DNA of 64,000 bases from Somniosus microcephalus (taxonomy: Eukaryota), in the NCBI GenBank assembly GCA_052327205.1, contig CM126207.1, positions 54,498,001 to 54,562,000 on the forward strand. The letters are read 5' to 3'. The notes below the pieces were generated by a model. It ran no database searches. It was given only the letters and a program-made list of their open reading frames with translations, and had not been told where the DNA came from. Shown piece after piece: positions 27,401 to 60,024 of this stretch. The position numbers and the translations under genes are program-made. Positions within the stretch are counted from its first letter, which is position 1. Each line of letters opens with the position of its first letter.

Positions 27401-28075
27401 TTTGGGGCACTCTCCCAAGACTTTGTATTTTAGGTGGGGGGAGAAAAGAAGAAGCAAGGCCGGATCATCAAGGGGTGTAGTGTGTGTGTGTGTGGCTCTT
27501 GTTAAAAGCTAGGCCACACACACCACTAATTAGCATCCCTTCTATTGCCTGCCCTGGGAGAGCTTGGAGCTGCCCAAGGTGAAGTCCTTAATTTAATTTA
27601 ATTACATCGTTAAGACCTGTTGCAGGACTGAGCCTGAAAATAAAAGGCTTCTCCAGCTTTTCCAGGTGAAGACGTCTTCTCCCCCTGCCAGAAGACCACC
27701 ACCACCAAAGACTTTTTCCATCGGAGAGTGCAACCCTGCCAACACCCACCCACCATCCTGAGTGGCAACACTGCCCTTTGCGGCCTCCCTCCTTCCCACC
27801 CCCCCACCTCTCTCTCTCTCTCTGTCTCTCTCTGCCTGTCTTTCTAAGGCACCTTAGTTTCATCTATTTTATTAATTGCCAATTGAGCAGAGGGGAGAGG
27901 GCCCCTCTCCCAATTTAAATCAATAAGGAGAGAGGTGTGTCCTCATTTTAATCAGCTCCCTCTGCTCAATAGAGGACAAAAAAAATATATATACACCGAG
28001 GCCATTAACACCTTCAGGCCTGTGACTTGGGGTGAGTGTAGCCCTTAAAAAAAAAAAAAAAAAAAGCACCCCAGA

Positions 28076-30229
28076 ATGGCGACTGCGTCTTCGCCGGTGG
28101 CGGGGCCAGCCAGGACCTATGCGAGAGTGGTAGCCACAGCCACAGCTGCTCCCGCTGTTCCTGCTGCCCCGTCACCTTTTCAATTAATAACAAAAAAGCT
28201 TGGGGTGAAGAGCTACACTCACCCCACTATGACCATCGAGGCCTGCGTCAAGGCCATGGCTGGGGTTGTCGGCCCCTCAGCCATCGTCGCGGCCTCGAAA
28301 ATGTATGGGAAGGCTGTGTTCTTCCTGGGGTCGGAGCGGGCGGTGTCCCTGGCTGTCGCCAAGGGGCTCACCGTGGGCAGGACCTTCCTGCCGGTGGATC
28401 CTCTCGAGGCCACCGCGCAGAGGATCATTATTTCCAACGTCCCGCCCTATGTTCCTGGTGAGCTCCTCCTTCCCCATTTGCGACAACTTGGGGAGGTGAG
28501 GTCGGGGATCACACCCATCCCGCTCGGCTTCCGGGAGGCCAGCCTTCGCCACGTCTTCTCCTTCCGGCGCCAGCTGTTTATCCAGCTGGCGCAGGAGGAG
28601 GACACTGACGGGGCGTTCGTCGTCCTCCACGAGGGGACCGCCTACCGCACCTTTTGGACGTCGGACGGTGTGAGGTGCCATGCCTGCAGGGAGGTGGGGC
28701 ACATCAGGAGGAACTGCCCTGCCTCCAAGGCCGCCGGATCATCTCGTGCGGCCGAGGCTGGCGCCGCCGCCGCCCTTCCCCCCGGATCTGCCCGCGCGTC
28801 AAGTACGTCTGATGCGCGGTTGACGTCGGGGGCCGATGCCACCAAGGCCTCCGGCGGGGGGGAGGGAGCGTGTCCGGCCGGAAAGAAGGCGCGGGGAAAA
28901 AAGAAGCACCTTAGGGCGGGTCCCCCCGTGGATGGCGAGCCCTTGCCCCTTGAGCCCCTTACACCCGCGCTCCTCGCGGAGTTGATCAGGGCAGATGTGA
29001 GCGGGAGGGGCCTCGTGCCCGAGCCTGTGGCCGCAACCACCGCAGCGGTAATGCCAATACCTGCGGCCGGGCTCGGGCCCGAGGAACCCGACAAACCTGC
29101 TCCGCCGGAGGGAGTTGAGGAGGAGGCCTTTGCAGACATGGAGGTCTCCCTCGCTCCCTCCGTGCTAAAAAGAAGGCGCGACCCCCTGGATGAGGAGGAG
29201 GACCGGGAGGAGGAAGGTCCCTCCGAGCAGGGGGAGTCGTCGCCCGCCGCGGGTACTGCGCCCCCCCCCCCCCCCAGCGCTGTCGTCATCACCAGCGATC
29301 GGCAGGGGTCGCCTGTCCCTCGGGAGGCTGAGGCAGATGTGTCTGTCCAGCACGTGCCTCCCGGGGATGGGGATGAGACCCTGCCCGTGGGGGGGGTTGC
29401 GGAACAACCCGCGGCAGTAATTGAAATTGACCTTTTATCGGTGCCGTTACCCCTCGCCGGGTCGGGCAGCCTGGGGGCTGGGTCGGGCGAGCTCGAGGAT
29501 AATGAGCTCGCCCAATGCGACCCGGACGTCTCCCAGGGGATGCTCGTCCTGGTAGAGCTTTTAATTCAAAACCCCCCGTCCGCTGGGTCGGAGGTTGGTG
29601 GCGGGGAGGAGGATGGCCCCCTGGCTGCGTCTCTGGTGCCGGACGTACTGGATGATCTGGAAATTGTTCTCTCCCCGGTTTCTCCGGTCGTTCCGGCGTC
29701 TGAGGCGGAGGGGAGCTCTGAACCGCCGCCGTCTTCTGGCCCGGCACCCCTAGAGGAGCCCAGGGAGAAATCCTCTGCCGCCGATCCTGGGGGTGGGATC
29801 CGGGCGGAGGCGGGGCTGGCTGGCGCGGCCGAGTCATTCGCTTCGCACTGCGCGGCGGACGGGTCGGCCGCTGGTGACGACCCCCTGGAGGAGGATGGGG
29901 ACTCGGTGATGGGCACGGAGGACGATTCGGACTCCAGCGCCGACGTGGCGATGGATGACCTCGTGCCCCTTGCCGAGTCTCCCCTCATTTCCGTAAAGGA
30001 ACTCCGGGATTTTATGGCCACGTGCCTGGGTCAGCGCAATAAGGTCCGGCTGGCCCTCGACAGGTGGTCGGAGCTGGCGCTGCTCATCGATTCCGTCCGC
30101 GCCGCCGTTAAGATCATGGGCGCGGACGAGGGTGTGAACCCGCTCGAGCTGCGTCGGCTCACAACGTTTCTCACTGGGCTGCTGAGGAAGTGGCGGCTGA
30201 CCAGCGGCTGCGCTTCCTCCCCCCGTTAG
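28076..30229 (+). CDS. Tx1 ORF1 (RRM-like region, CCHC zinc knuckle, acidic low-complexity tail), 717 aa
   Basis: SAIVAASKMYGKAVFFL, IIISNVPPY, HVFSFRRQ and CHACREVGHIRRNC are typical Tx1 ORF1 motifs. Confidence 0.9.
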   Translation: MATASSPVAGPARTYARVVATATAAPAVPAAPSPFQLITKKLGVKSYTHPTMTIEACVKAMAGVVGPSAIVAASKMYGKAVFFLGSERAVSLAVAKGLTVGRTFLPVDPLEATAQRIIISNVPPYVPGELLLPHLRQLGEVRSGITPIPLGFREASLRHVFSFRRQLFIQLAQEEDTDGAFVVLHEGTAYRTFWTSDGVRCHACREVGHIRRNCPASKAAGSSRAAEAGAAAALPPGSARASSTSDARLTSGADATKASGGGEGACPAGKKARGKKKHLRAGPPVDGEPLPLEPLTPALLAELIRADVSGRGLVPEPVAATTAAVMPIPAAGLGPEEPDKPAPPEGVEEEAFADMEVSLAPSVLKRRRDPLDEEEDREEEGPSEQGESSPAAGTAPPPPPSAVVITSDRQGSPVPREAEADVSVQHVPPGDGDETLPVGGVAEQPAAVIEIDLLSVPLPLAGSGSLGAGSGELEDNELAQCDPDVSQGMLVLVELLIQNPPSAGSEVGGGEEDGPLAASLVPDVLDDLEIVLSPVSPVVPASEAEGSSEPPPSSGPAPLEEPREKSSAADPGGGIRAEAGLAGAAESFASHCAADGSAAGDDPLEEDGDSVMGTEDDSDSSADVAMDDLVPLAESPLISVKELRDFMATCLGQRNKVRLALDRWSELALLIDSVRAAVKIMGADEGVNPLELRRLTTFLTGLLRKWRLTSGCASSPR

Positions 30230-30260
30230 GTGTAGGTAGAGGTTGCACTATGCTTCTGAC

Positions 30261-33200
30261 ATGAAGATAACCATAGCCAGCTTCAACATCAACGGCAGCA
30301 GGGAGGCGCGCCGCAGATTCAATAACTTCTCGGTCCTTCGGGACGGGAAGTATGCGGTGTGCTTCCTGCAAGAAACCCACACCGTTCCGGGAGACGAAGC
30401 CACGTGGCTCCTGGAGTGGCAAGGAGGGGTCAGCATGAGTCACCTCTCCAACAATTCCAGCGGGGTGGCTATCTTGCTGGCCCCGCATTTTCAGCCGGAG
30501 ATCTTGGGGGTCAAGGAGCACGTGCCGGGCCGCTTGCTCCAGGTCACTGTTCGCCTGGGGGGCGTGCCGCTCCATCTAGTGAACGTGTACGCCCCTCAGA
30601 CCAGTGCGCAGCAAGTGCACTTCTTCGAAGAAGTGTCCGCTCTCTTGGGCTCCATCGACGTGGGCGAGTGCGTCATCCTCGGGGGGGATTTTAACTGCAC
30701 CCTCGAGGCGAGGGACCGTTCGGGTCCCCCGCGAAGCCCGGCGGCGATGGAGAAGTTGAGGGACCTGGTTGGGTCCTTCGACTTGGTGGACGTCTGGCGA
30801 AATCTCCACCCCGACTCCAGCGCCTTCACTAGCGTGAGGTCTGGGGGAGGAAGGTCCAGAATCGACCGCCTCTACATTTCCCGGGCGTACGTCTCCTGCG
30901 TTCCGGCAGCTTCCATGCGGCCGGTGCCGTGCACGGACCACCACCTGGTGTGGGCGGAGCTCGCTCCGCTGCGCGCGCGGGGGGGGTCCGTGTACTGGCA
31001 TTTTAACAACCTGCTGCTGGAGGACGCACGGTTCCGGGATTCGTTTCGTCGATTCTGGGCCGACTGGAGAAGGAAGCAGGGGGGCTTCCCCTCCTTGAGG
31101 CTATGGTGGGATGTGGGCAAGGCTCACATCCGTCTCTTCTGTCAGGAGTACGCGAAGGGGTCGACCAAGAGGCGGGAGGCCCGGGTCGGGCGGTTGGAGA
31201 AGGAGGTGCTCGACCTGGAGTCCCGTCTCGGTCAGGTCGTCGAGGACCCGGCCCTGCGGAAGGTGTACGAAGAGAAGAAGGGCGCGCTGAAGGACCTGCA
31301 GCTCGTCGGGTCCCGAGGCGCGTACGTGAGGTCGCGGATCCAGCTCCTGCGGGACCTGGACCGCGGCTCCCCCTTCTTCTACTCGCTGGAAAAAAGACGG
31401 GGGGTCCGTAAGCAGCTCTTGGGGCTGCTGGCCGACGACGGATCTCTGGTCTCGGATCCGGAGGGAATCAGCGCGGAGACCCGCGCCTATTACGGGGCTC
31501 TGTTCTCTCCGGATCCATCCAGCGAGGATGCGCGCAGAGTTTTGTGGGAGGACCTGACGAAGGTTGGCCCGGAGGGCGCCGAAAAATTGGACGCTCCGCT
31601 AAGTCTGGCGGAGCTGACCGGCGCCCTCCGCCAGCTCTCTAGGGGAAAGTCCCCGGGGCTGGACGGGCTGACCGTGGAGTTCCACAGGGCGTTCTGGGAC
31701 GTCTTGGGGGGCGACTACGCGCGGGTCCTGGGGGAAAGTTTGGCGACCAGGGAGATGCCCCTCTCTTGGCGCAGGGCGGTCATTGTCCTGCTGCCTAAGA
31801 AGGGCGATCTCCGCCTCCTTAAGAACTGGCGCCCGGTCTCCCTCTTCAGCACGGACTATAAAATCTTTGCCAGTGCCATGTCTGCTTGCCTCGGCACCGT
31901 GCTGGCCCACATGATCCACCCCGACCAGTCCTACACGGTCCCGGGCCGGACCATCCACGATAACATCCACCTGGTCCGGGACCTGGTCCACCACTCCCAG
32001 AGGGCTGGTCTGTCGGTCGCCTTCCTTTCCCTGGATCAGGAGAAGGCGTTCGACAGGGTGGATCACGAGTATCTCTTCGGGACTCTGCGCGCATTCGGGT
32101 TCGGGACGCATTTTGTCGCCCGGATCCGACTTCTGTACGCCGCCGTGGAGTGTTTGATTAAAGTTAACGGGTCCTTGACGGCGCCCCTTCGCTTCGGGAG
32201 GGGGGTGCGTCAGGGATGCCCCATGTCCGGTCAGTTATACGCCGTTTGCGTGGAGCCATTCCTGCGCCTTTTGCGGAAGAGGTTGACGGGACTGGCTCTG
32301 CAAGGGCCGGGCGTGGAGGTGGTCCTCTCGGCTTACGCCGATGACGTGCTCCTCACGGTCACGGATCCCGCTGACTTGCGGAGGATGCGGGAATGCCAGC
32401 AGATTTACTCGGACGCATCCTCCGCCAAGATCAACTGGGAGAAATGTTCCGGACTCCTGGTGGGTCAGTGGCGGGTGGACTCCCTGCCAGAGGAGTTCAG
32501 GCCTTTCGCCTGGAGCACCACGCACCTCCTCTATTTGGGAGTCTACCTTAGCCCTGCCGAGGACGCCTGGCCGGCGAACTGGCAAGAGCTGGAGGCCAAA
32601 GTCACCACTCACCTAGGACGCTGGACAGGACTGCTCCGAGTGTTGTCCTACAGGGGTCGAGCGCTGGTCATAAACCAGCTGGTGGCCGCCATGTTGTGGT
32701 ACCGGTTGGTCACTTTGATCCCTCCCCCTGCGTTTGTCGCCAAGATGCAGAAGAAGCTCATCGACTTCTTCTGGGACAAAAGGAAGCACTGGGTCTCTGC
32801 CGCGGTTCTGTGTCTCCCACTTAGGGAGGGCGGTCAGGCGCTGGTGTGCCTTCGCACCCAGGCTGCGACTTTCCGTCTTCAGACTCTGCAGAGATACCTG
32901 TACGTCGAGAATCCTCCGAGATGGTGTGCGTTGGCGATGTTTTTCTTCCGCCAGCTGCACGGCCTCAATTACGACACGCAGCTCCTGTTCGCGAAAGTGG
33001 GCGGCAGGTGTGCCGGCCTGCGGGAGCTGCCTGTCTTCTACCAGGAACTGCTATGGGTTTGGAACTACGTCGCTTCCAGGCGGAGCTCTCCCCCCGTCAG
33101 GAGCGGCAGCTCTCCTTCGGGAGCCGCTGCTCAGGAATCCGCACCTCCACGAACGCGGGTTCGGGCGGCTGGCGGATGGCAGAGCTGTGCTTGGCAAGGT

Positions 33201-34159
33201 GACCAGAGTCGGGGACCTGCTCGATGGCGGAGGAGCGGGCTGGATGGCGCCGGAGGAGCTGGCGCGGCGCCTGTCCTGGGCCAACGTCCGGCTCGCGGTC
33301 GAAGCCATCGAATCGGTGAAATCGGCACTGGGCCCCGACTCCACTAGGTGTATCGAGGCGGCTCAAGCACGTGGGGCGATCCCGTCCAAGCTTACCCCCG
33401 TTCAGACGGAATTCCTCATCGGCGCCCGGCCCCGAATCTCCCCTCGGGAACCGGCGCCTCACAACTTGAGCCGTCTCGAGGAAATACCCTCCGTGCCTTT
33501 TCATTCCGCGCGGAGGGGTTTCCTGTACGGGCTGCTCCTGCACACTCTCCACTTTGCCATCTTCGTCTACCGTCCGGACACGCCTTGGCGTGGCGTCTTG
33601 CCGACTGGCGGTGGCGGAGGTCCCCAATGGAGGGCTCTCTATGCGGGAGTCCTCCCTTGTTCCATCGGGGACTTGGCCTGGAGGGTGTTGCACGGAGCGG
33701 TCCCGTGCAATAAGGTTTTAAGTAGGTTCACGGACTCCCAGGCCGCCTGCATTTTTTGCGGCCTGGAGGAGTCCGTGTTTCACCTTTATATGGAATGTGA
33801 GAGGTTGCAGCCCCTCTTTCACTACTTGAAGGGGCTGCTCCTCGATTTTTGGTTGCACTTCAGTCCCACGCTCTTGATCTACGGTCACCCGGTGCGGAGG
33901 GAAGCGGACAGGTTGGAGGACCTCCTTGTGGGCCTGCTCTTGGGCCTGGCAAAAAGCCATCAATTGGTCCAGGCAGCGGGCGGTCGAGGGGGTCGTCCAG
34001 CCGGATTGCCTGCCTCTCTTCCGCGGCCATGTTCATGCCCGGGTGGCCCTGGAGATGGAGCACGCGGTGTCCGCCGGTGCGCTTGAGTATTTCCGCGACC
34101 GGTGGGCGCCGCGGGGACTGGAGTGCATCATCAACCCGGAAAACAAAATTTTAATTTGA
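30261..34159 (+). pseudogene. Tx1 ORF2 (APE endonuclease, RT, C-terminal CCHC) with two frameshifts at about 33092 and 33953
   Basis: SFNING, FLQETH, GGDFN, SRIDR, TDH; KSPGLDG, LDQEKAFDRV, GVRQGCPMSG, AYADD; CIFCGLEESVFHLYMEC. Confidence 0.93.
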
Positions 34160-34978: not shown

Positions 34979-36661
34979 TTTGTGTCTTAATGCAAGGAGC
35001 ATTCGGAATATGGTGGATGAATTAGCTGCACCAATAGAGGTAAACGAATATGATTTGATTGGGATTACGGAAACATGGCTCCAGGGTGGCCAAGGCTGAA
35101 AACTGGTTGGCAGACAGAAAGCTAAGAGTTGGAATAAACGGATCTTTTTCCGAGTGGCAGGCAGTGGCTAGTGGGGTACCGCAGGGATCGGTCCTTGGAC
35201 CCCAGCTATTCACAATATATATTAATGATCTAGACGAGGGAACTAGATGTAATATCTCCAAATTTGCAGACGACACAAAGCTAGGTGGGTGTGTGTGCTG
35301 TGAGGAGGATGCCGAGAAACTCTAGGATGATTTGGACAGGTTGGGTGATTGGGCAGAAGCATGGCAGATGCAATATAACGTGGATAAATGTGAGGTTATC
35401 CACTTTGGTGGCAAAAACAGGAAGGCAGATTATTATCTGAATGGCAATAGATTGAGCGAAGGGGAAGTGTAACGAGACCTGGGTGTCCTTGTGCACCAAT
35501 CACTGAAGGTAAGCATGAAGGTGCAGCAGGCGGTTAAGAAGGCAAATGGTATGTTGGCCTTCGTAGCGAGAGGCTTTGAGTACAGGAACAAGGATGTCTT
35601 GCTGCAGTTGTACAGGGCCTTGGTGAGACCACACCTTGAGTATTGTGTGCAGTTTTGGTCGCCTTATCTGAGGAAGGATGTTCTTGCCATGGAAGGAGTT
35701 CAGCAAAGATTCACCAGGCTGATACCTGGGATGGCAGGAATGACGTATGAGGAGAGATTGGGTCGATTGGGCTTATACTCACTGGAGTTTAGAAGAATGA
35801 GAGGGGATCTCATTGAAACGTATAAAATTCTGACAGGACTGGACAGACTAGATGCAGGAAGGATGTTCCCGATGGCCGGGGAGTCCAGAACCAGGGGTCA
35901 CAGTCTAAGGATAAAGGGTAGGCCATTTAGGACAGAAATGAGGAGGAATTTCTTTACCCAGAGAGTGGTGAACCTGTGGAATTCTCTACCACAGAAGGCA
36001 GTAGAGGCCAATTCATTAAATATATTCAAGAAGGAGTTGGATATATTTCTTAAGGCTAAAGGGATCAAGGCGTATGGGGAGAAAGCAGGGACAGGGTACT
36101 GAATTTGGATGATCAGCCATGATCACATTGAATGGCGGAGCAGGCTCGAGGGGCCGAATGGCCTACTCCTGCTCCTACCTTCTATGTTTCTATAAGGAAA
36201 ATAGATGACATCCGTACTCCAATAATGGCATTGAAATAGCTACCAATGAAGCTGAAAGAGACCTAGAGGTCTTCGTAGACTCAGCGGTTAGTACATTCAA
36301 CCAATGAAGAGCAACAATCAACAAAGTCAATTTGACGTTGAACTGCATAGCCAAAACAGTAGGATATAAGTCAGAGGAAATAGTTATCAAACTCTATACA
36401 ACAATGTAGTGTATGTACCCGTCTATCTTTAAGGGAACTATTGAATGTAACCGTTCACCTTTAAGGGAACTACTTTAGGTGTGGCACTATTTGTTTGGCT
36501 TCTGTATACTGTAATACCGATAGTGACCACACCAGTATATAAGTGTTGTGCCAGGAGTTATTGGGCAGATTCGCCCGGACCTTCGAATAGTAAAGACCTG
36601 TTTTGTTTGTTACTTCTGAAGTCTGTGTATTTATTAACTGCACAACCCACAGACTTTACAG

Positions 36662-36671
36662 TGGCGACGAG
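36662..36671 (+). promoter_or_regulatory. Primer-binding site TGGCGACGAG, complementary to the 3' end of tRNA-Ser(GCU)
   Basis: Lies 1 nt after the LTR. Vertebrate tRNA-Ser(GCU) ends ...CTCGTCG-CCA (recalled). Confidence 0.75.
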
Positions 36672-37149
36672 TCCGATCGTACCCTGCGGCAAGATTACCA
36701 AAGCAAGAAGAGCGTCGAAGAGAGGCAACCGCCCTCGTCGTGCTGCTGGAAGAAAACACGAGGCTGCAGCAGGAGAAAGGTGGAAGACTTTAGCAACAAA
36801 AGCTTCCATTAGCAACAGGCACTGACTACCCTTCTACCACGGTGCGGAGTGAGTCGATCGGCAGGGAACAAGGCGGCCGAAGAGACTGTGAGTAGGGGAA
36901 GGTGTAGAAGTATCCGGAGGATAAGGGCAGAGCACTCGACCTCGGTCGAGGGGGAGCTGTGCCGGCCAAAAGTCGGGTCCAACGGCGTCGGGTGACAGCT
37001 GGACCGCGATCGGCGGGGAAAATCCAGGCAGCGACCGCAGCCACGAAGCGCTGAGCCTGCGAGTAGGCGCGGGAAGAGAAGCCCAGCCGCAGCCGGGGAG
37101 GGAAACACTGGTCTGCGAGAGGGCTGGGGAGGCGAACGAGAACCGTGCG

Positions 37150-37780
37150 GGTGAGAGCCGGGTGCGGAGAGAGAGACTGCGAGGAGCCAGTCCAGCGGCT
37201 GAGCTGTTCTCCACCAACGGGGTACTCAGAGCCGGCAAAACCGAACGTGCGGGAGTGGGTGAGAGACACAGCCGAAAACGGGGTGAGAGACTGCGCGAGA
37301 GCCAGTCCAGCGGCTGAACTGTTCTCCACCAACGGGGTACCCAGGGCCGGTAGCACCGAACGTGCGGGTGAGAGAGCGACAGAGCCGGGTACGGAGAGAG
37401 AGACTGCGCGAGAGCCAGTCCAGCGGCTGAACTGTCCTCCGTTAACGGGGTGTACCCAGCGCCGGTAGAGCCGTGCGGGCGGGAGGAAAGGACATAGCCG
37501 AGTAAGGGGAGCTGTGCGGAAGCCAGCCAGCGGCTGAACCTGTCCGCTGTGGGGGAAGCGTACCCCTTCCACCGGGAAGAAACGCGGGAAGCCGCCATTA
37601 GGCGGAGAAGACGCCAGAAGCGGGAAACCGCCATTGAAGTGGGCGGGGCGAGAAAGGAAGAGCGGGAAACCGTCATTTTTGCGGGAAAACCGCCATCTTG
37701 ATTGACATACCGCCATTGAAGTGGGCGGGGAGAGAAGGGAAGAGCAGGAAACCGCCGATTTCGCGGGAAAACCGCCATCT
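37150..37780 (+). repeat. Tandem repeats in the LTR-element leader (about 114 bp x3 and about 81 bp x2)
   Basis: GAGCCAGTCCAGCGGCTGA at 37184, 37299 and 37412; CCGCCATTGAAGTGGGCGGG at about 37628 and 37709. Confidence 0.85.
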
Positions 37781-37844
37781 TAGAAACAAACAAATAAATA
37801 AGAATACTTAAAGAAATACTGGTGCTGCTCCCAAGGGAAGAGAA

Positions 37845-40800
37845 ATGCCTAAGCGAGGGAATATTAATGACTTTAATTCGGAAATAGAAGACTGGGCCAC
37901 GTACGTGGAACGCATAGAAATCTATTGCGAAGCCAACAAAATAGAGGAAGACGACAAGGCGATAACATTGCTAAACTCGATGGGGGCAAAAACATACGGG
38001 CTCTTGAAGCATCTAATAGCACCAAATAAACCAGCGGATCAGACCTTCGAAGAGATTGTGGCTGTGCTGAAGGACCATTTGAACCCCACACCGCTGATGC
38101 TGGCTGAACGATTCAAATTCTACGCAAGAACGCAGAAGAAAGACGAAAGCAATGCGGAATACTTGGTCGAACTGCGTAGGCTAGCGAAATACTGCCAGTT
38201 CGGAGGGAATCTGACAGAAGCGCTGCGGGACAAGTTCGTATGCGGATTGTCCAAAGAAGGGACGCAGAAGCGACTACTGGAAGAGAACGACCTCACACTG
38301 GACAGGGCTGTCCTTATAGCTGCATCGCACGAAGCCGCAGCGAAAGGAATGGCGGAAATGCAACTAAAGGCGGCGGCACTCGGGGTGGACCAAATTACTT
38401 CAAGCACAACAAAATGCTACCGTTGTGGGAAGACAACGCATGACCAGAATCAATGCTGGTTTAAGAACCAAGAGTGTAGGAAATGTGGCAAACTGGGTCA
38501 CATCGCGAAGGTATGCCGGTCCGGGAAAAAGACCAATAATCAAAGGAAGCCACCACCAGAAAAGTACAACAAGGTACACAAGGTGGCTGAGAAGAGTTCA
38601 GACGAACAGAATTCAGACTCAGACCCAAACAACCAGGAGCTGGGTAGGCTGAGAATCCACAATGTGGGTAAAGAAACGGATCTACAGGCCATCTGGGTCA
38701 CACTAAAAATAGCTGGAGTCCAAGTAAGAATGGAGCTGGACACTGGATCAGCTCTATCAGTCATCAACCGAAGGGACGACCACCGGCTATTCTCTCACAT
38801 ACCTTTAAGAAATACCAAGTTCGTATTACAGACATACACGGGGCATAACGTATACCCCGTGGGGAAAATAAGAGACAAGGTGAGAGATAGGGGTAAAGAA
38901 CACCCAAGAATGAACTTGTACGTATTACCTGAGGGAGGACCACCACTTCTAGGACGGGAGTGGATTAAGAAAATAGACATGGAATGGCATTACCTAAAAG
39001 CCATAATGAGGGAGGACTCGGTGCAAGCTATTAGCTCAGATTCTGAAATGGATGATGATAAGACCAAGTCGAATATGGAAGACAAGGCTAAAAGGGACTT
39101 GCCGACGGTGGGAAAGAAAACGAAGACATGCAGAAGGACTTATGGTACCAAGAAGAATAAAGCTGCAGAGCAGAACTCCAGGTTGACAGAGAATTCTGAG
39201 CCTGTTCAAGCAAAGGATTCATCCATGACGGAAGAACACCGAGCTCGGACGCAAACTTATGTCAAAGTACGACAACAATTAGAACAGTTGAGTGACCGTC
39301 TCGTACAAGAGATGAAAAATATGGAAAGGTTCTGGGACACCGAATGGGAGAACCTGGAAAGACTACAGAGGCAGCTAGCTCAAGCAGAGAGCGACCATAG
39401 AGCCATCGTGGTCAAATACCAATCACATTCCCCTGATGCTGTTCAGGAACTAGAATATTTACAGAATGAACCAAAGGAAGAGGAATCTTCAGGGAGCCAG
39501 GATTTTATTCCAGTTCTTCTCTACGACTCCTTACAAGCAGAGTGTGAGAAGTTGAAAGAACAGTATGAACAGGCCCAGGCTACAATTCTGGAGGGGGTTA
39601 ACTCGGCAGCCTCCGAAAAGCTAGTTTCAGTAGAAGCATATGAACAACTAAAGGTTGAACATGAGCAAGAAGTCCAAAGGCTGCAGGAAATTCTTGATGA
39701 GCTCAAGGCCAAGACAGACTCATCGGTAGGAGATCCATCCATAGATGAGAAATTAGAGGTGAAAATCATGGCAGAGCATGAAAGACAGGGGGCTAGATTT
39801 TCAGTATAGACAGTTTTGGGGCGCTAACCTTAGCGCCCGCCCGAAGTTAGCGCCCGCCCCAAAGTAGCGCCCCGTTGCCGGAAATTCAGTGGCTTCGCCC
39901 TAAGAGAGTGGTGGAGCGCTAAAAGAGGCATTCCACTCCTACCTTTAGGCGCTAAGCTGGCGGTCCAGAGGGATAGCGCCCAGGCGGGGCGCAGCGCGGG
40001 TGCGGTCATTTTTGCACTGACAGCAGACCCCGTGGTGCCGACCAGCTGTTAAAGGGGGAAGGGACGAATTGGTCTGCTGCCACGCCCTGCACACTGCAGC
40101 CTTGCAAAGAGGCCTCAACACTGCTGCTCAGCCCCAGGGAGTCATGGCAACGCCAGAGAAGGCCCGTCAGCGTGCCCTGCGCTTCTCAGAGGGTGATCTG
40201 GACATAATGGTCACAGCTCTGGAGGTGAGGCGCAAGATCTTGTTTCCAGAGAGTGGGAGGAATCCAACCCACCATGACTACACCAAAGCCTGGAAGCAGA
40301 TCACCCAGAGGGTGACGTTCACCGGCGATGCCCCCAGGACCCACAAACAATGTCGTAAAAAATACAACGATCTGACCAGGATTGTGAAGGTGAGTAGCCT
40401 TTCCAGTCTCCTCCTCATTCTTGCATGTACACCTGACATGATGGGCAAAGGGAGCTGAAAGTCCTATTGGCCAGCCCTCAGCCAGCAGCATTGGGACAGT
40501 CATGAGCATCAAATGGCCATTCGGCACTCTACACTTTGGCCAAGCTATTCCACCATGGGAGGCAGTGCACACTACATCAGGGCTTCACTCTCTCCAAGCT
40601 ATTCCACCATGGGAGGCAGTGCACTCTACATCAGGGCTTCACTCTGTCCAAGCTATTCCACCATGGGAGGCAGTGCACACTACATCAGGGCTTCACTGCG
40701 CACTTACAGCCCGTCCTTTCTCTTGCAGGCTAAAGTAGCGTTTAATCGCCAGGCCCATGCCAGGGGTGGCCGCGCCAAGCTGCAGAAGCTCACTCGGCTG

Positions 40801-43800
40801 GAGGAGCGCGTGTGTGTGCTCATGGGAGCCCGTGTGATTGTCCCCACAGCGTGCGGTGTATCCGACCCTCCACTGCCCGGCAATGGTAAGGACCTCGCCT
40901 TTTGGCCCTCTCGCGTCGCACTGGCCCATCCGAGCTACCTCCTTTGCCACTGTCCCACCAATGCGCTGAATGCCACCAGTCCTAACTCCCTCGCTGACGC
41001 CGTCTCCTCACTCTGAAGCTACTCTTGTGCATTCCTGCTTTCAGCTGGTGACGACCAGGACCCTGAAGCTGCCAGTGACAGCACCTCCGACCAGGAGGAG
41101 GAGGAGGAGCAAGCCGGACCTTCGGGGGAACAGTCACGTCCCACAGGAGAGGAGGAAATGCTTGACACCTCCTCACTGGACGAGTGCCTGGAGGAACTGT
41201 CGCAGGGCAATGCAGCTTCTGGGACCAGTGGCGTCCAGCCACCCAGGAGCCGTGCGCGTGGCCCGCGGCCTTCCCCCCAAAGGGGGGAAGGATCAGAGGG
41301 GAGTGCTGCTACTCGGCACACTCGCCGCCACCAACGCGGCAAGGGTCCCCTAGTTTGGCCCCCTCCTCCCCAGCGGGAGAGTCGCGACTCCAGTCCGGAC
41401 ACCTTCACTTCGGAGGAGGTGCGGAAGCTGGATAAGATGGCCGAGGACTCGGACCGGCGCCACACGGAGCTCATGAGCGTGGTGGGGTGCATGCCTGAGG
41501 CCATCGAGTCGCTGGCGACCAGTGTGCGCGAGTTCGGGGCAGCAACTGCCGCGAGTGGCCGCATGCTGACTGATGCCGTCAAGACCCTGGCGGCTGTGAT
41601 GCGCGCGCACACCAGGACCACAGGGGCACTCACTGCTGCCACACGCGCTGTCTCAGGCAGGCATCGCCAGGGCAGCCGCCGCGCTGGACCATCCCAGCAA
41701 GCCGCCCCTCGGCTGATTGCTGCGAATCCTGCAGTGCGGGCCCGGCCGAGTGCCACCGCGCCACAGCACCAGCCAGCGCATCCCAGACGCCAGCTGGCCC
41801 ACATTGCGCCATCCGTCGCCGCCATTCCCCCACTGGGGCATCAAGGGCAAGCGGCTGCAGCTGATGGTGGCCAGGCTCAGGTGCGCCACTCAGCAGACGG
41901 CCCCTCGAGGCCCAAACGCCGTGTAGGCTGCCCCCCAGCGGCATCTGGTGGAAGGGCATCTGAGCCTCAGGCGCCTTCCCCCAGCCTCGCAGCAGCCACT
42001 GGGCAGAGCTTGCGAAGGAGCAGCAGGCCGGGCAGGGGAGGCAAAAGGCTGGCCAAGGTCTCGCCCTCGCGGGCCACTCAGTAGAGGGTGTGGGCAGCTT
42101 TCCTTTAATATGGCGGTGGCCATCTTTATTTTGCCCATGGTTGTGTTGTTGGAGGGCTTATTTTTTGCGTTAGGCCGACGTTGAGGCCCGGTTTGAAGAA
42201 AGGTGGAGTGACTCCTCCCCAGTTTGTGGGAGTGAGTCGTTTATTGGGCTTTTTGTGGGGCCCGTTTATTGTTTTTGGGGATTCATGTGGGAAGGGCTTT
42301 TCATTTTTGTGCAATAAAAAATTATCTTTATTCATGCAGTCTCCATGGTTGTTCTTCTTAGTGTTTGTTGGCTCCGCCGGCTGAGGGCTTGCGGAGCGGC
42401 TGCATTCATCTTCCCTCATGGCCCCTGGCCATTCCCTGACAGGGGGCTTAGAAGTACCGTGTAATAAGGTGGCGTCGTGCGGCCCTTGGCCCTGGTCGCT
42501 CCCTCCTGGGAACGTACTCCTCCTCCTCCTCCTCCTCCTCATGCTCCTCCTGCTCCTCCGCCTGAGGTGCAGGTCCAACGTCAGGAGGCAGTGCCTGAGT
42601 CCTGCGGATAGCCAGGTTGTGTAGCATGCAGCAAACCACCACAAATTGGGAGACCCGGTCCGGCGAATACTGGAGAGCTCCTCCGGAGCGATCAAGGCAG
42701 CGGAACCGCTGCTTGAGGACCCCAATAGTTAGCTCGATGATGTTGCGGGTGGTTTGATGGCTCTCGTTGTAGGCCTCTTCAGCAGCGGTCCTGGGCGCGC
42801 GGAGCGGGGTCATGAGCCAGGTGCACAAAGGATAGCCTTTGCCCCCGATGAGCCATCCTCTTGGGGGAGGCTGTGCTTGGAACATGTCATGCACAGTACT
42901 CTGCCGCAGGATAAAGGCATCGTGGCTGCTGCCTGGGAAGCTGGCATTGACTGCCACGATGCGCTGCTTGTGGTCACATACCAGCTGCACATTCAGAGAA
43001 TGGTAGCCCTTCCTGTTGCGATACTGCTCGCCATGCTCCAGAGGGGCCCGCAAAGCCACATGCGTACAATCAATGGCGCCCTGCACCAAGGGGAATTCCC
43101 CGAGTCTGGCAAATCCCAATGCGCGCTGATGCTGGCTCTCGAGGGCCATGGGGAAGGAGATGAATTGGCTTCTCCTTCTGAACAGTGCTTCGGTCACCTG
43201 GTGGATGCAGCGATGCGCGCCGTACTGGGAGATGTTTGCTATGTCCCCAGCAGCGTATTGGAAGGAGCCGGTGGCATAGAAGTTCAATGCCACCGTCACC
43301 TTCACTTCCACCGACAGAGACGTCCTGCACCTGAGCTTTGGCCGCAGATCTCGGCGAAGCAGGTGGCAGATCTCTGCAATCACCTCCTTTCGGAATCGGA
43401 GCCTTTTAACACATCGCGCGGCACTCATGTTTAGGTAGGAGCGCTGCTGGCGGTATAGCCTGACTGGGTAAGGCCTACGTGGCCGACGCCTGTAGCCCCC
43501 TCTGCCTCTAGCCAGGGCTGCCCCTCTCACAATGCGTCTGCGAGCCCTACGGACATGGCGCTGCAGCTCCGCGTTGGCACCCCATGCAGGCCCCATCAAA
43601 TCCTGGCAAACAGTCTAATTTCCAAATGGCCACTTGCAGCGCTATGGCCTGAGTCCAAAAATACCTGGCTCTTGCTGCTTGAAACCAGTTAGCTATCCTC
43701 CTTGTTGTGTCTCCAGAAATGCGTTGCACAAGACTGTTTTCTGAAAAAAGGCTGGCCTTTATACTGGAGAGGACGTTCCCTTTAATTAGCGCCCCCCGGG

Positions 43801-45036
43801 GCCCGCGCTGGTTGTGTTGCGTTCCTTTTTCCAAACGCTCCGGCCGCCCGCCGCACAATGGGGCGGTCCGACTGAAGTTTGGAATCGGGGCGGCCAACGG
43901 GCGTTGCACGAGGATGTGACGTCATTTTCTGCGCGCGCATCCGGGCGGGCGCTAAACTTTGCGCCGGCGCTAACGGGCAACTTAATTTGGGGCGGGGCGC
44001 AAACTGCGCTGCGCCCGGGCGCTACACGCATAGCGCCCGGAAATCACTTCTCTTAAGGCGCTAACTGCTGGCGCAAGCGACTGAAAATCTAGCCCAGGAT
44101 GTCCAAGAACTTATAAAAACATTGAAGGACACCCAAGACAAATATAAGGCGGCAATGACCGAGGTTCAACAACTTGAAGAACAGATTCAACTGGGAATCC
44201 TTTCAGTGGAAGAACAGGACACTGTAAGAATGGTCCCTGAACATGAACTAGAGAGCATCAGGGCGCAACTTTTCCGAGCGCTGAAAGCCAAAGTTCAAGA
44301 GGAACGTAAGGTGGAAGTATTGGAGAAAGAGGTGGAGGAAATGGAGAAGACTCTGATCCACCGTGTTCCCAGGGAAGAGTTAACGGTCAGCCAACTCCTT
44401 CATATGCTGAAGGACAAGACTCTGCAAGGGGAACAATCTGAACACGAGCTTCAATCTTCAGGGGGAACGAGTTCGGAGCTCTCAAAAGTCACGGAGATAG
44501 CTGAGGTGGCAACACAAATTTTACAAGGATGCCAAAAGTACGTTGAATCACGTCAAGGTGAACAGAAGAATGTGGAAACCGTTACTTCAGTAGAAGGGTT
44601 AAATAGCCTGATAACGCAATTACCGATGGAAAGGAAGGTATTGAACTCACAAACGAGGTCCGTCGTGAAGGAATGGCAGATAACCCAGGAAGAGTGGGAT
44701 GAATATGAATGCATGAAGAAGGCTTTTCAAGAAAGATGTTTAGGGAAGGAACCACCGTCAGCTAACGTCCAGACGGGTGAGGAGGAAGAAGAAGTCTCTC
44801 TTGCTGGCCTAACTCAGGACGAACCCGAATATTACCATGACCTGTTGAGTGACACTGAATATTACGAGGATGTGGTCTGCCCAGCTTGTGATGAAAACTC
44901 TCAAAGTGCTGAAATCCGGAGGAAGCACTTAAGGTCTAAGGAACATAGAGAGTTGGTGGCGCTACAGCTGGCAGCCGAGAAAGGAGCTCCGAGAGTTTCA
45001 AAAAGGCAGAAAAGAAAAAGAAGAAGCAGAAGATAA
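37845..45036 (+). CDS. Gag, two zinc knuckles, aspartic protease, coiled-coil and C2H2 zinc-finger fusion; 960 aa after removing the nested Harbinger (37845-39789 plus 44099-45036)
   Basis: Gag motifs (EDWATYVER, AERFKF, LRDKFVCGL), CYRCGKTTH/CRKCGKLGH, protease MELDTGS...PLLGREW. The in-frame join reads ...HERQ-DVQELIKTLKD.... Confidence 0.88.
40144..42084 (+). CDS. Harbinger Myb/SANT-like DNA-binding protein; predicted exons 40144-40389, 40729-40885 and 41045-42084 (480 aa)
   Basis: RALRFSE...W..I...RT..QCRKKYNDL. GT-AG introns (GTGAGT/TTGCAG and GTAAG/TTTCAG) give a 1443-nt in-frame CDS with no internal stop. Confidence 0.85.
40541..40698. repeat. 54-bp tandem repeat x3 in intron 1 of the Myb-like gene
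   Basis: CAAGCTATTCCACCATGGGAGGCAGTGCAC... at 40541, 40595 and 40649. Confidence 0.9.
42448..43599 (-). CDS. Harbinger (HARBI1-like) DDE transposase, about 383 aa; the GDKGY motif reads GGKGY
   Basis: [73 protein letters not shown]. Confidence 0.93.
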   Translation of the reverse strand: MMGPAWGANAELQRHVRRARRRIVRGAALARGRGGYRRRPRRPYPVRLYRQQRSYLNMSAARCVKRLRFRKEVIAEICHLLRRDLRPKLRCRTSLSVEVKVTVALNFYATGSFQYAAGDIANISQYGAHRCIHQVTEALFRRRSQFISFPMALESQHQRALGFARLGEFPLVQGAIDCTHVALRAPLEHGEQYRNRKGYHSLNVQLVCDHKQRIVAVNASFPGSSHDAFILRQSTVHDMFQAQPPPRGWLIGGKGYPLCTWLMTPLRAPRTAAEEAYNESHQTTRNIIELTIGVLKQRFRCLDRSGGALQYSPDRVSQFVVVCCMLHNLAIRRTQALPPDVGPAPQAEEQEEHEEEEEEEEYVPRRERPGPRAARRHLITRYF

Positions 45037-45447
45037 TAACTGTCTAAAATATTAGCACTTCTACCATTCCAGGCGGGACATTACGAAAGGAGCTAAATTA
45101 GTTGAAAAACTGGAAAATGTCAAGACAGCCAGTTGGTTGTAAAGGTCCGCACTGCTGGTTCAACAGGACGAAGGTTCAAGCTGTTACGTCAAGAAAAAGG
45201 CTATGGAGGAGTCACACTAGCCAGGTAATCCGGCTACACCAAAGAAATGTTGTTCGGAACGAGTCAAGATCAGAGACTGAATCTATGAACTGTTTCCGCA
45301 GAGACTGAACCTGTGAACTGTTTCCACCGAGTTTATATTTGTAAATTGTTTTATATGACATTGACTCCACCGAGATTATGTCTGTAATTTGTTTTATAGG
45401 AAGTTGAAGATATGTATGTTTAACGGGGACTCTGTAAGTAATGAGCT

Positions 45448-45460
45448 AAAAAGGGAGGAT
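45448..45460 (+). promoter_or_regulatory. Polypurine tract
   Basis: AAAAAGGGAGGAT immediately before the 3' LTR. Confidence 0.8.
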
Positions 45461-45716
45461 TGTAGTGTATGTACCCGTCTATCTTTAAGGGAACTATTGA
45501 ATGTAACCGTTCACCTTTAAGGGAACTACTTTAGGTATGGCACTATTTGTTTGGCTTCTGTATACTGTAATACCGATAGTGACCACACCAGTATATAAGT
45601 GTTGTGCCAGGAGTTATTGGGCAGATTCGCCCGGACCTTCGAATAGTAAAGACCTGTTTTGTTTGTTACTTCTGAAGTCTGTGTATTTATTAACTGCACA
45701 ACCCACAGACTTTACA

Positions 45717-47070
45717 AACAACAAGTTGCCTTTATATAGTGGTGTAAAAAGACTACTGAGCGATTGGTTTGAGTATAAGACAAGGCTTTAATGAACTGTT
45801 TCAAAACCATGAGATTTTAGTTACATCACTAGTTCCTGGTTACAGAAACATCCTGAGCAAGCTGGGCCCACGCCCGAATATTTATACTCCTTGGATGGTG
45901 CCACCAGCTGGCCACCCAGTGTTACTTCATGAGCCATTTCTTCATAAATGATAAGATTCATGACATATAACACCTTTAACTTGGTAAAATGTCCTGAGGC
46001 ACTTCACATGAACGTTATCAAACAAGATTTGACACTGAGCCACATAAGGAGATATTGGGACAGGTGACCAAAAGCTTGTCAGAGGCAGGGGGAGAAATTC
46101 ATTATAGCCCTGCTTGGGGCTCTAAATTTTAAAAGTTTGGAAAATTAGCGGCAGGTGCTAATGATTCTAGACTTTAAAAAAATTTGCCGTTTGCGCTCCA
46201 GGAAGGAAGTGGAGTGCTCAACCAAGCCGTCCAGCGCTGCCGCGTTCAAAGGCTCCTTCTCTCCCTTAAAGGGAAGGGCCATCGCTGCAGGCTCTGCAAT
46301 TTAAAAATTACCTACCTGGACCATCAAGGCAGCCGTGATCCAGCGTGATCAGCCCGGCACACAAGCAGAGTGCTGGGCTGATCGATCGCAGACAGGAAGC
46401 TGTGAGAAAAAGCGGAACAACAAAGGTAAGTTTTTTTTACTTACCTCGGCCACCTCGCCTTTAATCATCGCCCCCAAAGCGGCCGGCCGCCTGATGCTCG
46501 CCTCCTGCAGCTGTCGGTGTTTTCGCCCGGCGCTGCTGCAGGGGGCGGAAGTCAATTTCGGTTCCAGGGCGATGCGCAAGGTGAATACGTCACAATTCCT
46601 GGGTGAAGGCGATCGGGGCACAATGCCGTAGTGCCGCCGGGGGCACTAACTGGAGGCACAAAGGCACCCAATTTTGCCCCCATAGGTTTTAAAGAGCATC
46701 TTAAAGGAGGAGAGCGAGGTAGAGAAGTGGAGAGGTTTAGTGAGGAAATTCCAGAGCTTAGGGCCTAGACAGCTGAAGGCACGGCCGCCAATGGTGGAGC
46801 AAATAAATTTGGGATGCGCAAGAGACCAGAATTGAAGGAGCGCAGAGATTTTGGAGGGTTGTAGGGCTGGGAAGGTTACAGTGATAGGGAAGGGCGAGGC
46901 CATGGAGGGATTTGAAAATGAGGATGAGAATTTTAAAATCAAGACGTTGCCGGTCCGGGAACCAATGTAGGTCAGCGAGCACAGGGCTAATGGGTGAATG
47001 GGACATAAGGGCTCAAATTTACGGAGGGTGCAAGGTAGGAGGTTGGCCAGGAAAGCATTGGAATAGTCAA
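45717..47070 (-). mobile_element. L2-type LINE 3' fragment; its tail at 36399-36404 and 45717 onward was split by the LTR element
   Basis: Minus-strand ORF fragments RLDYSNAFL, SPVLADLHW..QRLDFKIL, GGRAFS..GPKLWN are typical of the L2 ORF2 C-terminus. Confidence 0.75.
46088..46681. mobile_element. Harbinger-type MITE inside the L2 fragment
   Basis: Ends GGGGGAGAAATT...AATTTTGCCCCC; TSD degenerate; similar to the MITEs at 1358 and 34424. Confidence 0.7.
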
Positions 47071-58700: not shown

Positions 58701-60024
58701 ACAATGACCTCTGCCACCCGGGGGTCACCAGGCTCTTCCACTTCATCAAGGCCCGCAACCTGCCTTACTCCATTGAGGAGGTCAGGACCATGACCAGGAA
58801 CTGCCAAGTCTGCGCTGAGTGCAAACTGCACTTTTATAGACCAGACAGGGCTCACCTGATAAAAGCCACTCGCCCCTTCGAGCGCCTGAGCGTTGATTTT
58901 AAAGGGCCTCTCCCCTCCTCTGACCGCAATGTGCACTTCCTCAATATTATTGATGAGTACTCCCGTTTCCCGTTCGCCATCCCCTGCCCGGACATGACCA
59001 GTGCCACGGTCATTAAATGTCTGAACGACCTCTTCACCCTGTTCGGTTTCCCCAGCTATATCCATAGCGACCGGGGCTCATCGTTTATGAGCGACGAACT
59101 GCGTCAGTACCTTCTAGCTAGGGGTATTGCCACAAGCAGGACCACCAGTTACAACCCCCGGGGGAACGGACAGGTGGAAAGAGAGAATGCGACAGTTTGG
59201 AAGGCCGCCCTGCTAGCCTTAAAGTCTAGGGGCCTTCTGACCTCCCGCTGGCAGGATGTGCTCCCCGATGTGCTCCACTCTATTAGGTCACTGCTCTGTA
59301 CTGCCACTAGCGCCACCCCTCACGAGAAAATGTTTGTCTTCCCAAGGAAGTCCACGTCGGGGACATCGCTACCCGCCATGGCTGACGTCCCCAGGGCCGG
59401 TCCTACTGAGAAGACACGTGAGGACCCATAAAACAGACCCCCTGGTCGAGAGGGTCGACCTCCTCCACGCCAACCCCCAGTATGCTTACATTGCGTACCC
59501 GGACGGGCGGGAGGACACAGTCTCCATAAGAGACCTCGCACCCTTGGGGGCCGCAGTAACCCACTACCCACTACCCCCCCCCCCCCCAACGATCCGATAT
59601 CCAGCCCCAGCAGACGGCAGGCCTGGGCCCCGCGACCCGCTCGACATCTACGAGGACTACACACCAGTGCCCATGCCTACGCGGGACTCGACGCTGGAAG
59701 CTTCACTACCCTTGCCGTCGCCACGTCGATCACAGCGGCAGACAAGACCTCCGGAGAGACTCCAATACACTAACTTTTAATACACTTCACCCCGCTGGAC
59801 TCAATTTTAAACAAGGGGTGAATGTGGTAAACCACTGTTTGTATTCCACTGTGTACATGCCTGGCTGACTCCTCCCACGAATCCAGGTATAAAGGTGACT
59901 GCTCCACAGCCCCTTTGTATTCAGGACCGGTCGACCACTCGAGGCACACCTTCATTCTCTTGTTAATAAAAGCCTGTTAATTACTCGCTTAATCTCAGTC
60001 TTTTGAGTTATTGATAGCGCATCA
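55724..60024 (+). mobile_element. Full-length Gypsy/Ty3 LTR retrotransposon
   Basis: LTRs 55724-55936 and 59823-60024 (differing by a 10-bp duplication, a 1-bp indel and about 1 substitution), TSD TGTAG, PPT AAACAAGGGGTGAA. Confidence 0.95.
55960..59780 (+). pseudogene. gag-pol (Gag, CCHC x2, protease, RT, RNase H, integrase) with a stop at 56281 and several frameshifts
   Basis: CYFCGQAKH/CSGCGKKGH, LFDSGS, IDLKSAYHQ, PFG, YLDN, ESDASD, LLTDQ, H..LCH...CQVC, VDFKGP, HSDRG, GNGQVER. Confidence 0.93.

Follow-up and report, generated by a model that had tools for sequence, protein, structure and literature searches.

A retrotransposon bounded by long terminal repeats (LTRs) in the genome of Somniosus microcephalus encodes an in-frame mosaic of host-derived sequence, here termed cargo, in place of reverse transcriptase (RT), RNase H, and integrase. 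Two of the host captures in its family very probably derive from circular RNAs (circRNAs), as judged from the order of exons in the DNA. The element lies in a 64,000-nt stretch of contig CM126207.1 (54,498,001–54,562,000), called the window, in a genome of 6.4 Gb. Positions between 28049 and 63999 refer to the window, host loci are written as C-number:position in the same genome, and L-numbers denote fetched loci. The window element is a young, RT-less, non-autonomous retrotransposon of the Gypsy type, and its relatives with other cargo combinations are referred to as sister subfamilies. Protein similarity searches place the best relatives of the window proteins in sharks and rays. An earlier sequence-only reading of the window had described the element but missed both the cargo donors and the back-splice junctions, one of which belongs to a complete circle.

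Back-spliced exons of two host genes

The junction in the window is at 39446/39447, within residues ~510–742 of the encoded protein. This part derives from a gene called ankycorbin or ANKRD24-like by the sources, with a single host locus at C13:62.84–62.88 Mb. Here the 66-nt exon D runs directly into exon B, which has 1,512 nt and lies upstream in the gene, with no base of B missing at the join. Exon D of the host ends at C13:62873413 and is followed by a GT donor, while exon B starts at C13:62861849 and is preceded by an AG acceptor. Since the end of D is joined directly to the start of an upstream exon at host GT/AG sites, the join is a back-splice junction. An inverted repeat in the introns flanking the ANKRD24-like circle scores 408 bits, and 2 of 40 control pairs reach 400.

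The ANKRD24-like junction led to the prediction of the same for STK10, which is circularly permuted around optineurin in sister L067. Sister subfamilies found by a genome search with downstream STK10 sequence carry this junction, with the exon end at C8:167191933 joined to the exon start at 167198433 and only AG shared. In sister L129, the sequence proceeds from 167197008 to 167191933 and then from 167198433 to 167196995, which is one full turn of STK10. The turn comprises five exons and 1,245 nt, is intronless and 97–100% identical to host, and has its entry (167197008) and exit (167196995) in one and the same 11-nt motif within an exon. It stands in place of RT, RNase H, and integrase, with the protease linker before it and the final ~20 integrase residues after it. 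The circle lengths, 1,245 nt for STK10 and 1,743 nt for the ANKRD24-like gene, are both multiples of three.

Reversed joins could also arise without circles, by template switches between linear mRNAs, by trans-splicing, or from a tandem exon duplication since lost by the host. Such joins are made by RT in vitro, according to the part of PMC2923612 consulted, trans-splicing yields an identical junction, the ANKRD24-like join shares 4 bases, and non-circular routes are named by Dong et al. 2016 (PMC4897178). Nevertheless, an origin of this kind is very unlikely. The joins occur in two genes and are exact at annotated-type splice sites in both, and the insert of L129 has exactly the length of one circle, with a single intra-exon point as its beginning and end. 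The chance of an in-frame backward join at exon ends on both sides is about 1e-4 or less for each gene, namely 1–2 in 10,000 for STK10 (10 exons mapped) and 2–6 in 100,000 for the ANKRD24-like gene (5 exons mapped), and the host exon blocks of each gene are seen once in the fetched locus.

One sister with the ANKRD24-like back-splice, L053 (C13:62867070–62871961, minus strand), is itself inserted antisense in intron C–D of the host gene, a placement that may be chance at the copy density of the family. L081 (C3:354658832–354658948, minus strand) matches a later STK10 exon at 95% identity over 39 aa and lies away from the gene, beside a long interspersed element (LINE).

Structure, copy number, and class of the element

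The components of the window copy are as follows. Ratios of nonsynonymous to synonymous change (dN/dS) were estimated by counting, and a transition bias of 3 was assumed.

36400..36404, no strand: left target-site duplication (TSD), 5 nt, AACAA; right copy at 45717–45721
36405..36660, plus: 5′ LTR, TG...CA, 255/256 identical to the 3′ LTR
36662..36671, plus: primer-binding site (PBS), which we take to be of tRNA-Ser type; its first 9 bases are common to the autonomous candidate helper family
36672..37844, plus: 5′ leader with direct repeats of 113 nt (three to four copies) and 82 nt (two copies)
37845..38549, plus: Gag, aa 1–235, with a capsid-like region and two Cys/His zinc knuckles; dN/dS 0.06–0.13
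38670..38999, plus: aspartyl protease with DTG motif; dN/dS 0.18–0.25
39008..39376, plus: cargo 1, probable STK10 circle remnant, parts of three spliced exons; 69–79% DNA identity to host, C8:167.19 Mb
39371..39446, plus: cargo 2a, end of ANKRD24-like exon C (for the most part microhomology shared with STK10) and the complete 66-nt penultimate exon D
39446..39447, plus: back-splice junction, exon D end to upstream exon B start
39447..39789, plus: cargo 2b, ANKRD24-like exon B coiled coil, portion 5′ of the Harbinger
39790..44095, no strand: Harbinger DNA transposon, copy-specific and not a family component
44099..44380, plus: cargo 2b resumed, ANKRD24-like exon B to a 7-nt microhomology with optineurin
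44374..44787, plus: cargo 3, optineurin, linear-order spliced exons; a frameshift at codons 788–803 is compensated; host C17:85.88 Mb
44800..45015, plus: cargo 4, C2H2-jaz zinc-finger piece
44989..45036, plus: basic C-terminus with 10 K/R in 15 aa, and stop codon; its final residues come from STK10 in another reading frame
45037..45447, plus: 3′ untranslated region (UTR) containing STK10 sequence in decay and what is left of the integrase tail end, which remains coding in sister subfamilies
45448..45459, plus: polypurine tract (PPT), nearly identical to that of the candidate helper family
45461..45716, plus: 3′ LTR

The sequence-only reading correctly took the LTRs, PBS, PPT, and TSD to be intact, as the LTRs differ at 1 of 256 positions and AACAA is present on both sides. 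It also proposed that the open reading frames (ORFs) flanking the Harbinger join in frame. By arithmetic on coordinates, with no joined sequence built, their phases are compatible; the second piece, however, resumes at 44099–44101 and not at 44122. The uninterrupted 960-aa frame it postulated exists in natural copies. Among 20 fetched top-ranked copies, the Harbinger is missing from its insertion site in 19 (18 exact empty sites and one with a point change; in the remaining copy the site was not detected), and 12 have a 959–963-aa ORF from the same Met. An exact 5-nt TSD flanks 16 of the 20, and their LTR pairs are 0–4 bases apart. Copies with two LTR matches measure 4.9–5.0 kb, except for one of 5.3 kb with an insertion. 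Stop-to-stop frames of 964–978 aa contain 64 of the 150 best protein matches, a set that is biased toward young copies, and the searches favor copies with long frames. A subfamily-specific junction 24-mer occurs 668 + 718 = 1,386 times in the genome and its reversed control 0 times, in agreement with the suggestion of a recently mobile family, here of high copy number. Several same-orientation copies are 4.4–4.75 kb apart, about one element minus one LTR, and are tandem copies (C1:42059530/42064278, C11:47638568/47643314, and C5:217244808/217249223).

In the natural 960-aa protein, Pfam detects Retrotrans_gag, zf-CCHC, and an aspartyl protease, mostly slightly below curated cut-offs, and no match to RT, RNase H, integrase, or env at E ≤ 1. 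The LTRs with TG...CA ends, the PBS, the PPT, and the short TSD are those of a Ty3/Gypsy element, and autonomous relatives with the pol order PR-RT-RH-IN, as read by eye, are 65–72% identical to the Gag-protease in DNA and fall in one tree with it. From the Gag pattern and the two knuckles, the family presumably belongs to the Mag clade of Ty3/Gypsy. The absence of RT, RNase H, integrase, and env, together with cargo that maps to host exons, sets the element apart from autonomous elements and endogenous retroviruses, and the earlier claim that cargo replaces these domains holds. The protease and host cargo after Gag set it apart from plant-type TR-GAG elements, which are defined by a Gag-only single ORF. 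Features of LTR-mediated retrocopies are present, with intronless partial host RNA in place of internal ORFs and microsimilarity at switch points, as is that of circRNA-derived retrocopies, reversed-order exon junctions at true splice sites. The three outcomes that the sequence-only reading had set against itself are absent: copies are many, the frame is kept, and the cargo is not Pol or env.

Domestication as a host-useful Gag fusion gene is scarcely credible. An intact ORF and transcription are in line with it, but at least 1,386 dispersed copies with TSDs of their own, a window copy that is itself interrupted, and copy-private variants that are neutral, stops and frameshifts included, largely refute it.

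The Harbinger that interrupts the window copy has perfect terminal inverted repeats of 16 nt and a duplication of 3 nt, AGG. Its minus strand encodes a DDE_Tnp_4 transposase (E 4e-37) at 42448–43614 and its plus strand a Myb/SANT ORF, whose gene has a 54-nt repeat in three copies within its first intron. The duplication differs from the TWA or CWG that we assume for this group, and the transposase has Gly at what is presumably a catalytic Asp position. Elsewhere, the window contains a LINE at 28049–33344 (plus strand) with frames of 726 and 1,035 aa, the second starting, by eye, as an endonuclease type. CR1-like LINE ends at 35473–36102 and 62638–63999 and a decayed second LTR element at ~56284–59428 were also typed by eye.

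Donors, selection, and the basic tail

Four donors contribute to the window cargo. Residues ~389–511 come from STK10 (host exons at C8:167.19 Mb), an assignment based on a PKK domain in a sister (E 1.7e-16) and 94% identity to shark STK10 over the best piece. The ANKRD24-like segment follows, and residues 742–878 are optineurin. A C2H2-jaz finger, presumably DNAJC21-like and recognized with E 3e-10 in a sister that has diverged less, forms the terminal piece. Its donor locus was not found by a PF21884 search, a representative-protein search, the PDB, or inspection of 150 kb on one side of RAD1. The PF21884 match at C17:58.36 Mb was rejected, as its sequence does not match the finger piece, and a synteny guess beside RAD1 gave nothing within that 150 kb. 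The representative set returned three generic finger proteins and the PDB generic fingers; clusters combining ZUO1-like_ZHD and zf-C2H2_jaz, scored at 0.88 and 0.83, are leads only. Separately, the first coding exon of RAD1 (host gene at C40:6.87–6.88 Mb) has ~75 matches scattered over the genome. Five that were fetched fall outside the window LTR family, are 87–95% identical to host, and have a common 66-nt gap, several with adjoining low-complexity intron.

The joints between modules share bases, with 7 nt at ANKRD24-like/optineurin, ~7 nt at STK10/ANKRD24-like, and 11 nt at the STK10 entry. A direct parent, in which RT comes after this protease linker, was not found, nor was the parental pol sequence at the STK10 entry and exit, so that the joint there is putative. 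Among the cargo protein-search results there was no similar chimeric protein from another species, a weak negative given length limits and masked repeats.

Sister subfamilies carry STK10 alone or with optineurin, the finger, immunoglobulin (Ig) repeats, a myosin-tail coil, and a 158-aa piece with a weak C2HC finger match, in several combinations; further in-frame cargo is found in L110, L111, and L117, in L146, L147, and L156, and in L112 and L120. The Ig cargo consists of three I-set domains, titin/obscurin-like, and presumably comes from obscurin, as the myosin-tail coil presumably does from cingulin-like 1. The Gag-protease tree places the window group (100/100) with a C13 sister carrying all four of its modules and, one level further out, with L155, where STK10, optineurin, the finger, and the window-type tail occur without the ANKRD24-like piece. 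The tree is midpoint-rooted, the L154 row (a neighboring element's Gag) was disregarded, and only this nesting is used. Synonymous distance to source is 0.65–0.72 for STK10, 0.52 for the finger, 0.41 for optineurin, and 0.13 for the ANKRD24-like segment; the ANKRD24-like circle is therefore the latest gain. The window lineage has long branches, while L129 stays near-identical to host exons. A second kind of non-autonomous derivative, L063 (C13:~62.971–62.974 Mb, minus strand), has one 851-aa frame of Gag-protease-integrase with no RT or RNase H, and in its tail it is similar to the element with the full STK10 circle.

The Gag-protease is under strong constraint, as expected from the claim that the element keeps its own, with dN/dS of 0.06–0.25 against five sisters and 0.07–0.22 against the two nearest. 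The cargo evolves differently. Pooled dN/dS is 0.69 [0.53–0.89] against the sources and 0.68 [0.51–0.94] against the nearest sister, and segments range over 0.38–0.94 with most intervals including 1. The dN/dS check proposed for the cargo thus has a divided outcome, with an intact frame and pooled values that exclude 1 but single segments that mostly do not. The finger and tail have the lowest value (0.38 [0.17–0.86] against the nearest sister), and optineurin without its shifted 15-codon block gives 0.91. The open frame itself is kept. No stops are fixed in the cargo against ~27 and ~15 expected, its indels are +6, −18, −18, +30, and −39, and a −20/−1 pair shifts 15 codons and then restores the frame. 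Variants private to single copies (18 copies) are neutral in both regions, with N/S of 50/23 and 52/23 against 2.4–2.5 expected, and selection therefore acts on the replicating lineage and not on individual insertions.

An Arg-rich C-terminus arose twice. In one branch a frame change altered the integrase-derived end, and in the window branch a frame change dropped that end and created a new one in the same step, moving the integrase-derived end into the 3′ UTR. With some hesitation, we take the cargo to be kept as an open-frame spacer that leads translation to the basic tail; a dedicated function of the cargo sequence is less likely.

There are two rival readings of the cargo. In the first, with the same origin, the released cargo would be a true accessory protein (scaffold, decoy, or inhibitor) for which subfamilies try new modules; for example, optineurin pieces could interfere with selective autophagy, or the finger could bind RNA. 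The pooled intervals that exclude 1 in both tests, the 0.38 of the finger and tail, and ANKRD24-like changes that are 73% conservative against 58% expected (n = 22) speak for it. Nearly all donors are coiled-coil or Ig-repeat proteins, and many sisters keep ~300 aa of optineurin including a motif we take to be the LC3-binding site. This is unlikely, however, in view of single-segment intervals that include 1 for the ANKRD24-like piece and optineurin, and for STK10 against both sisters though not against host, and of conservative changes that are near neutral in STK10 (0.50 against 0.56) and optineurin (0.62 against 0.59). The 15-codon block is read in a shifted frame, modules are freely exchanged, and the presumed LC3-binding motif is missing from the window subfamily; as a feature of the window it was rejected, since its optineurin piece begins downstream. 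Of the mosaic accessory protein described earlier, the host-derived in-frame mosaic stands and a specific function is weak (segment dN/dS 0.6–0.9 with intervals mostly including 1, the shifted block, and module swaps).

In the second, which is less probable still, selection would act on RNA only: stop-free filler would shield genomic RNA from nonsense-mediated decay and restore helper-like length, the tail being incidental. Near-neutral amino-acid change without stops suits this, as do the lengths of multi-cargo subfamilies (4.7–5.0 kb) and of the helper (4.8–4.9 kb). Yet STK10-only elements of ~3.5 kb have amplified too, the Arg-rich end arose twice with the second event shortening the frame and lengthening the 3′ UTR, and the finger and tail are the most constrained cargo part.

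Proposed mechanism, relation to known systems, and significance

On balance, spliced host RNA has taken the place of RT, RNase H, and integrase in frame, probably by template switching, with circles as the probable templates of the two back-spliced pieces, and the cargo is probably retained as a spacer to the basic tail. A host circRNA would be packaged together with element RNA, RT would jump onto the circle at a microhomology, copy it once round until it meets the stretch degraded by RNase H, and then jump back to element RNA. Later rounds would swap optineurin, the zinc finger, and then the ANKRD24-like circle into the same slot, with selection retaining frame-preserving products only. The element would supply its own capsid and protease, while an autonomous family packaged alongside it would lend RT and integrase. 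Cargo would be released by the protease as a soluble spacer, through cleavage at a site retained after the protease domain; the residues directly after the protease are retained in all subfamilies seen. The basic tail may substitute for the basic integrase C-terminus in nuclear import or RNA binding. The element's Gag-protease would preferentially serve its own RNA, because otherwise Gag would drift.

A candidate helper is present in the genome. This autonomous family has at least 150 matches at ≥96% to one RT piece, and four fetched copies have frames of 1,357–1,375 aa and LTR pairs 97.9–99.4% alike. The first 12 LTR bases are the same as in the window family, the PBS and PPT are near-identical, and several sisters have tails 84–94% identical to its integrase tail, implying that the two are packaged together. 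Of two RNA runs, one shows sense transcription of the cargo-bearing family. This run, X7, mapped on a natural copy at 95% likeness, gave 11,077 reads with depths over the ORF of 100–831 sense against 1–24 opposite and 471 in the junction bin.

Several observations weigh against this scheme. The window junction shares 4 bases (CAG/G) with the linear joints, back-splices occur in only 2 of ~7 cargo types with the others in linear order, and no inverted repeat was found in the introns flanking the STK10 circle. The circles are deduced here from genomic junctions, and the cargo protein and its cleavage are predicted from sequence; element transcripts carry the same back-splice junctions as the parent circRNAs would. 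L119, L156, and one C13 sister change frame after the finger and end in a non-basic peptide. Cargo dN/dS below 1 overall, and lowest in the finger and tail, indicates some protein-level constraint, and between L029 and the sister L053 dS is 0.54 in Gag and 0.18 in cargo, a threefold gap (perhaps from recombination or rate differences) that could hide stronger constraint. We infer the cis preference of Gag from dN/dS alone, and Ty1 and HIV-1 Gag show none in the portion of PMC3945221 consulted. The helper's Gag has only 65–70% DNA identity and its LTR interior is unaligned (a 43-nt match in one of four copies); it is therefore a candidate and not a proven helper or parent, and the earlier proposal of Pol borrowed in trans stands as plausible to that extent. 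Run X8 (6,769 reads) has both strands at similar depth, and read counts are family-level, not copy-level.

Parts of this picture have precedents. Maize Bs1, as described in the parts consulted of PMC5131818 and PMC13317346, is an LTR element with a three-host-gene hybrid ORF that is transcribed and translated and underwent secondary retroposition. Pieces of several host genes in one hybrid ORF are common to both. Bs1 has 1–5 copies and one set of switch points in those accounts, whereas the window subfamily alone has at least 1,386 copies and the shark family comprises many subfamilies exchanging at least six or seven cargo types, with measured purifying selection on Gag-protease, a vertebrate host, and two back-splice captures. 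LTR-mediated retroposition in animals, as presented in the main text of Tan et al. 2016 (PMC5131818), includes host-mRNA replacement of internal ORFs, microsimilarity, multi-gene chimeras, and re-retroposition. The shark element resembles those elements in ORF replacement, microsimilarity at switches, and non-autonomous spread; it differs in a frame continuous with Gag-protease across a long replicating lineage and in templates that include circles, the words "circular" and "circRNA" occurring 0 times in that main text. TR-GAG elements of plants likewise have LTRs, a single Gag-bearing ORF, no RT or integrase, and helper-driven movement in the sections consulted of PMC8704663, but are Gag-only, and the shark element adds a protease and 570 aa of host cargo.

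The closest parallel for the circles is the mouse circRFWD2 pseudogenes (Dong et al. 2016, PMC4897178), with 33 copies, non-colinear back-splice junctions, and LTR-enriched flanks, whose mechanism was called "mysterious". Both are genomic copies with non-colinear back-splice junctions, but circRFWD2 copies are pseudogenes, while the shark STK10 circle is coding, amplified, and a full turn set between protease linker and integrase tail. The sections consulted of PMC11872487 treat repeats as drivers of circRNA formation, not of capture. Searches of the open-access literature yielded no account of a circRNA taken up by an LTR element that is coding and amplifying, and the supplements of Dong and Tan may list LTR-embedded cases.

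A wider proposal is that the lineage repeatedly harvests host circRNAs, a single full turn each time, and mRNAs into the position of Pol as a self-amplifying platform for protein shuffling, that the protease-released mosaics are selected and act on host or helper, and that the family supplies a mechanism for genomic copies derived from circRNAs; in this full form it is possible but tentative. The route from circRNA to genomic DNA was left open by work on circRNA pseudogenes, and this family preserves intermediates of it, a complete circle between two pol points in a sister and a later circle capture in the window subfamily. The family likely shows how circRNAs get written into genomes, with the prediction that RT, if competent in RNase H, should make a single turn of a circle before it jumps. 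In its cargo the family also preserves a record of germ-line RNAs that entered particles, and it offers a natural experiment on a large scale in which selection for an open frame can be set against selection for protein sequence.

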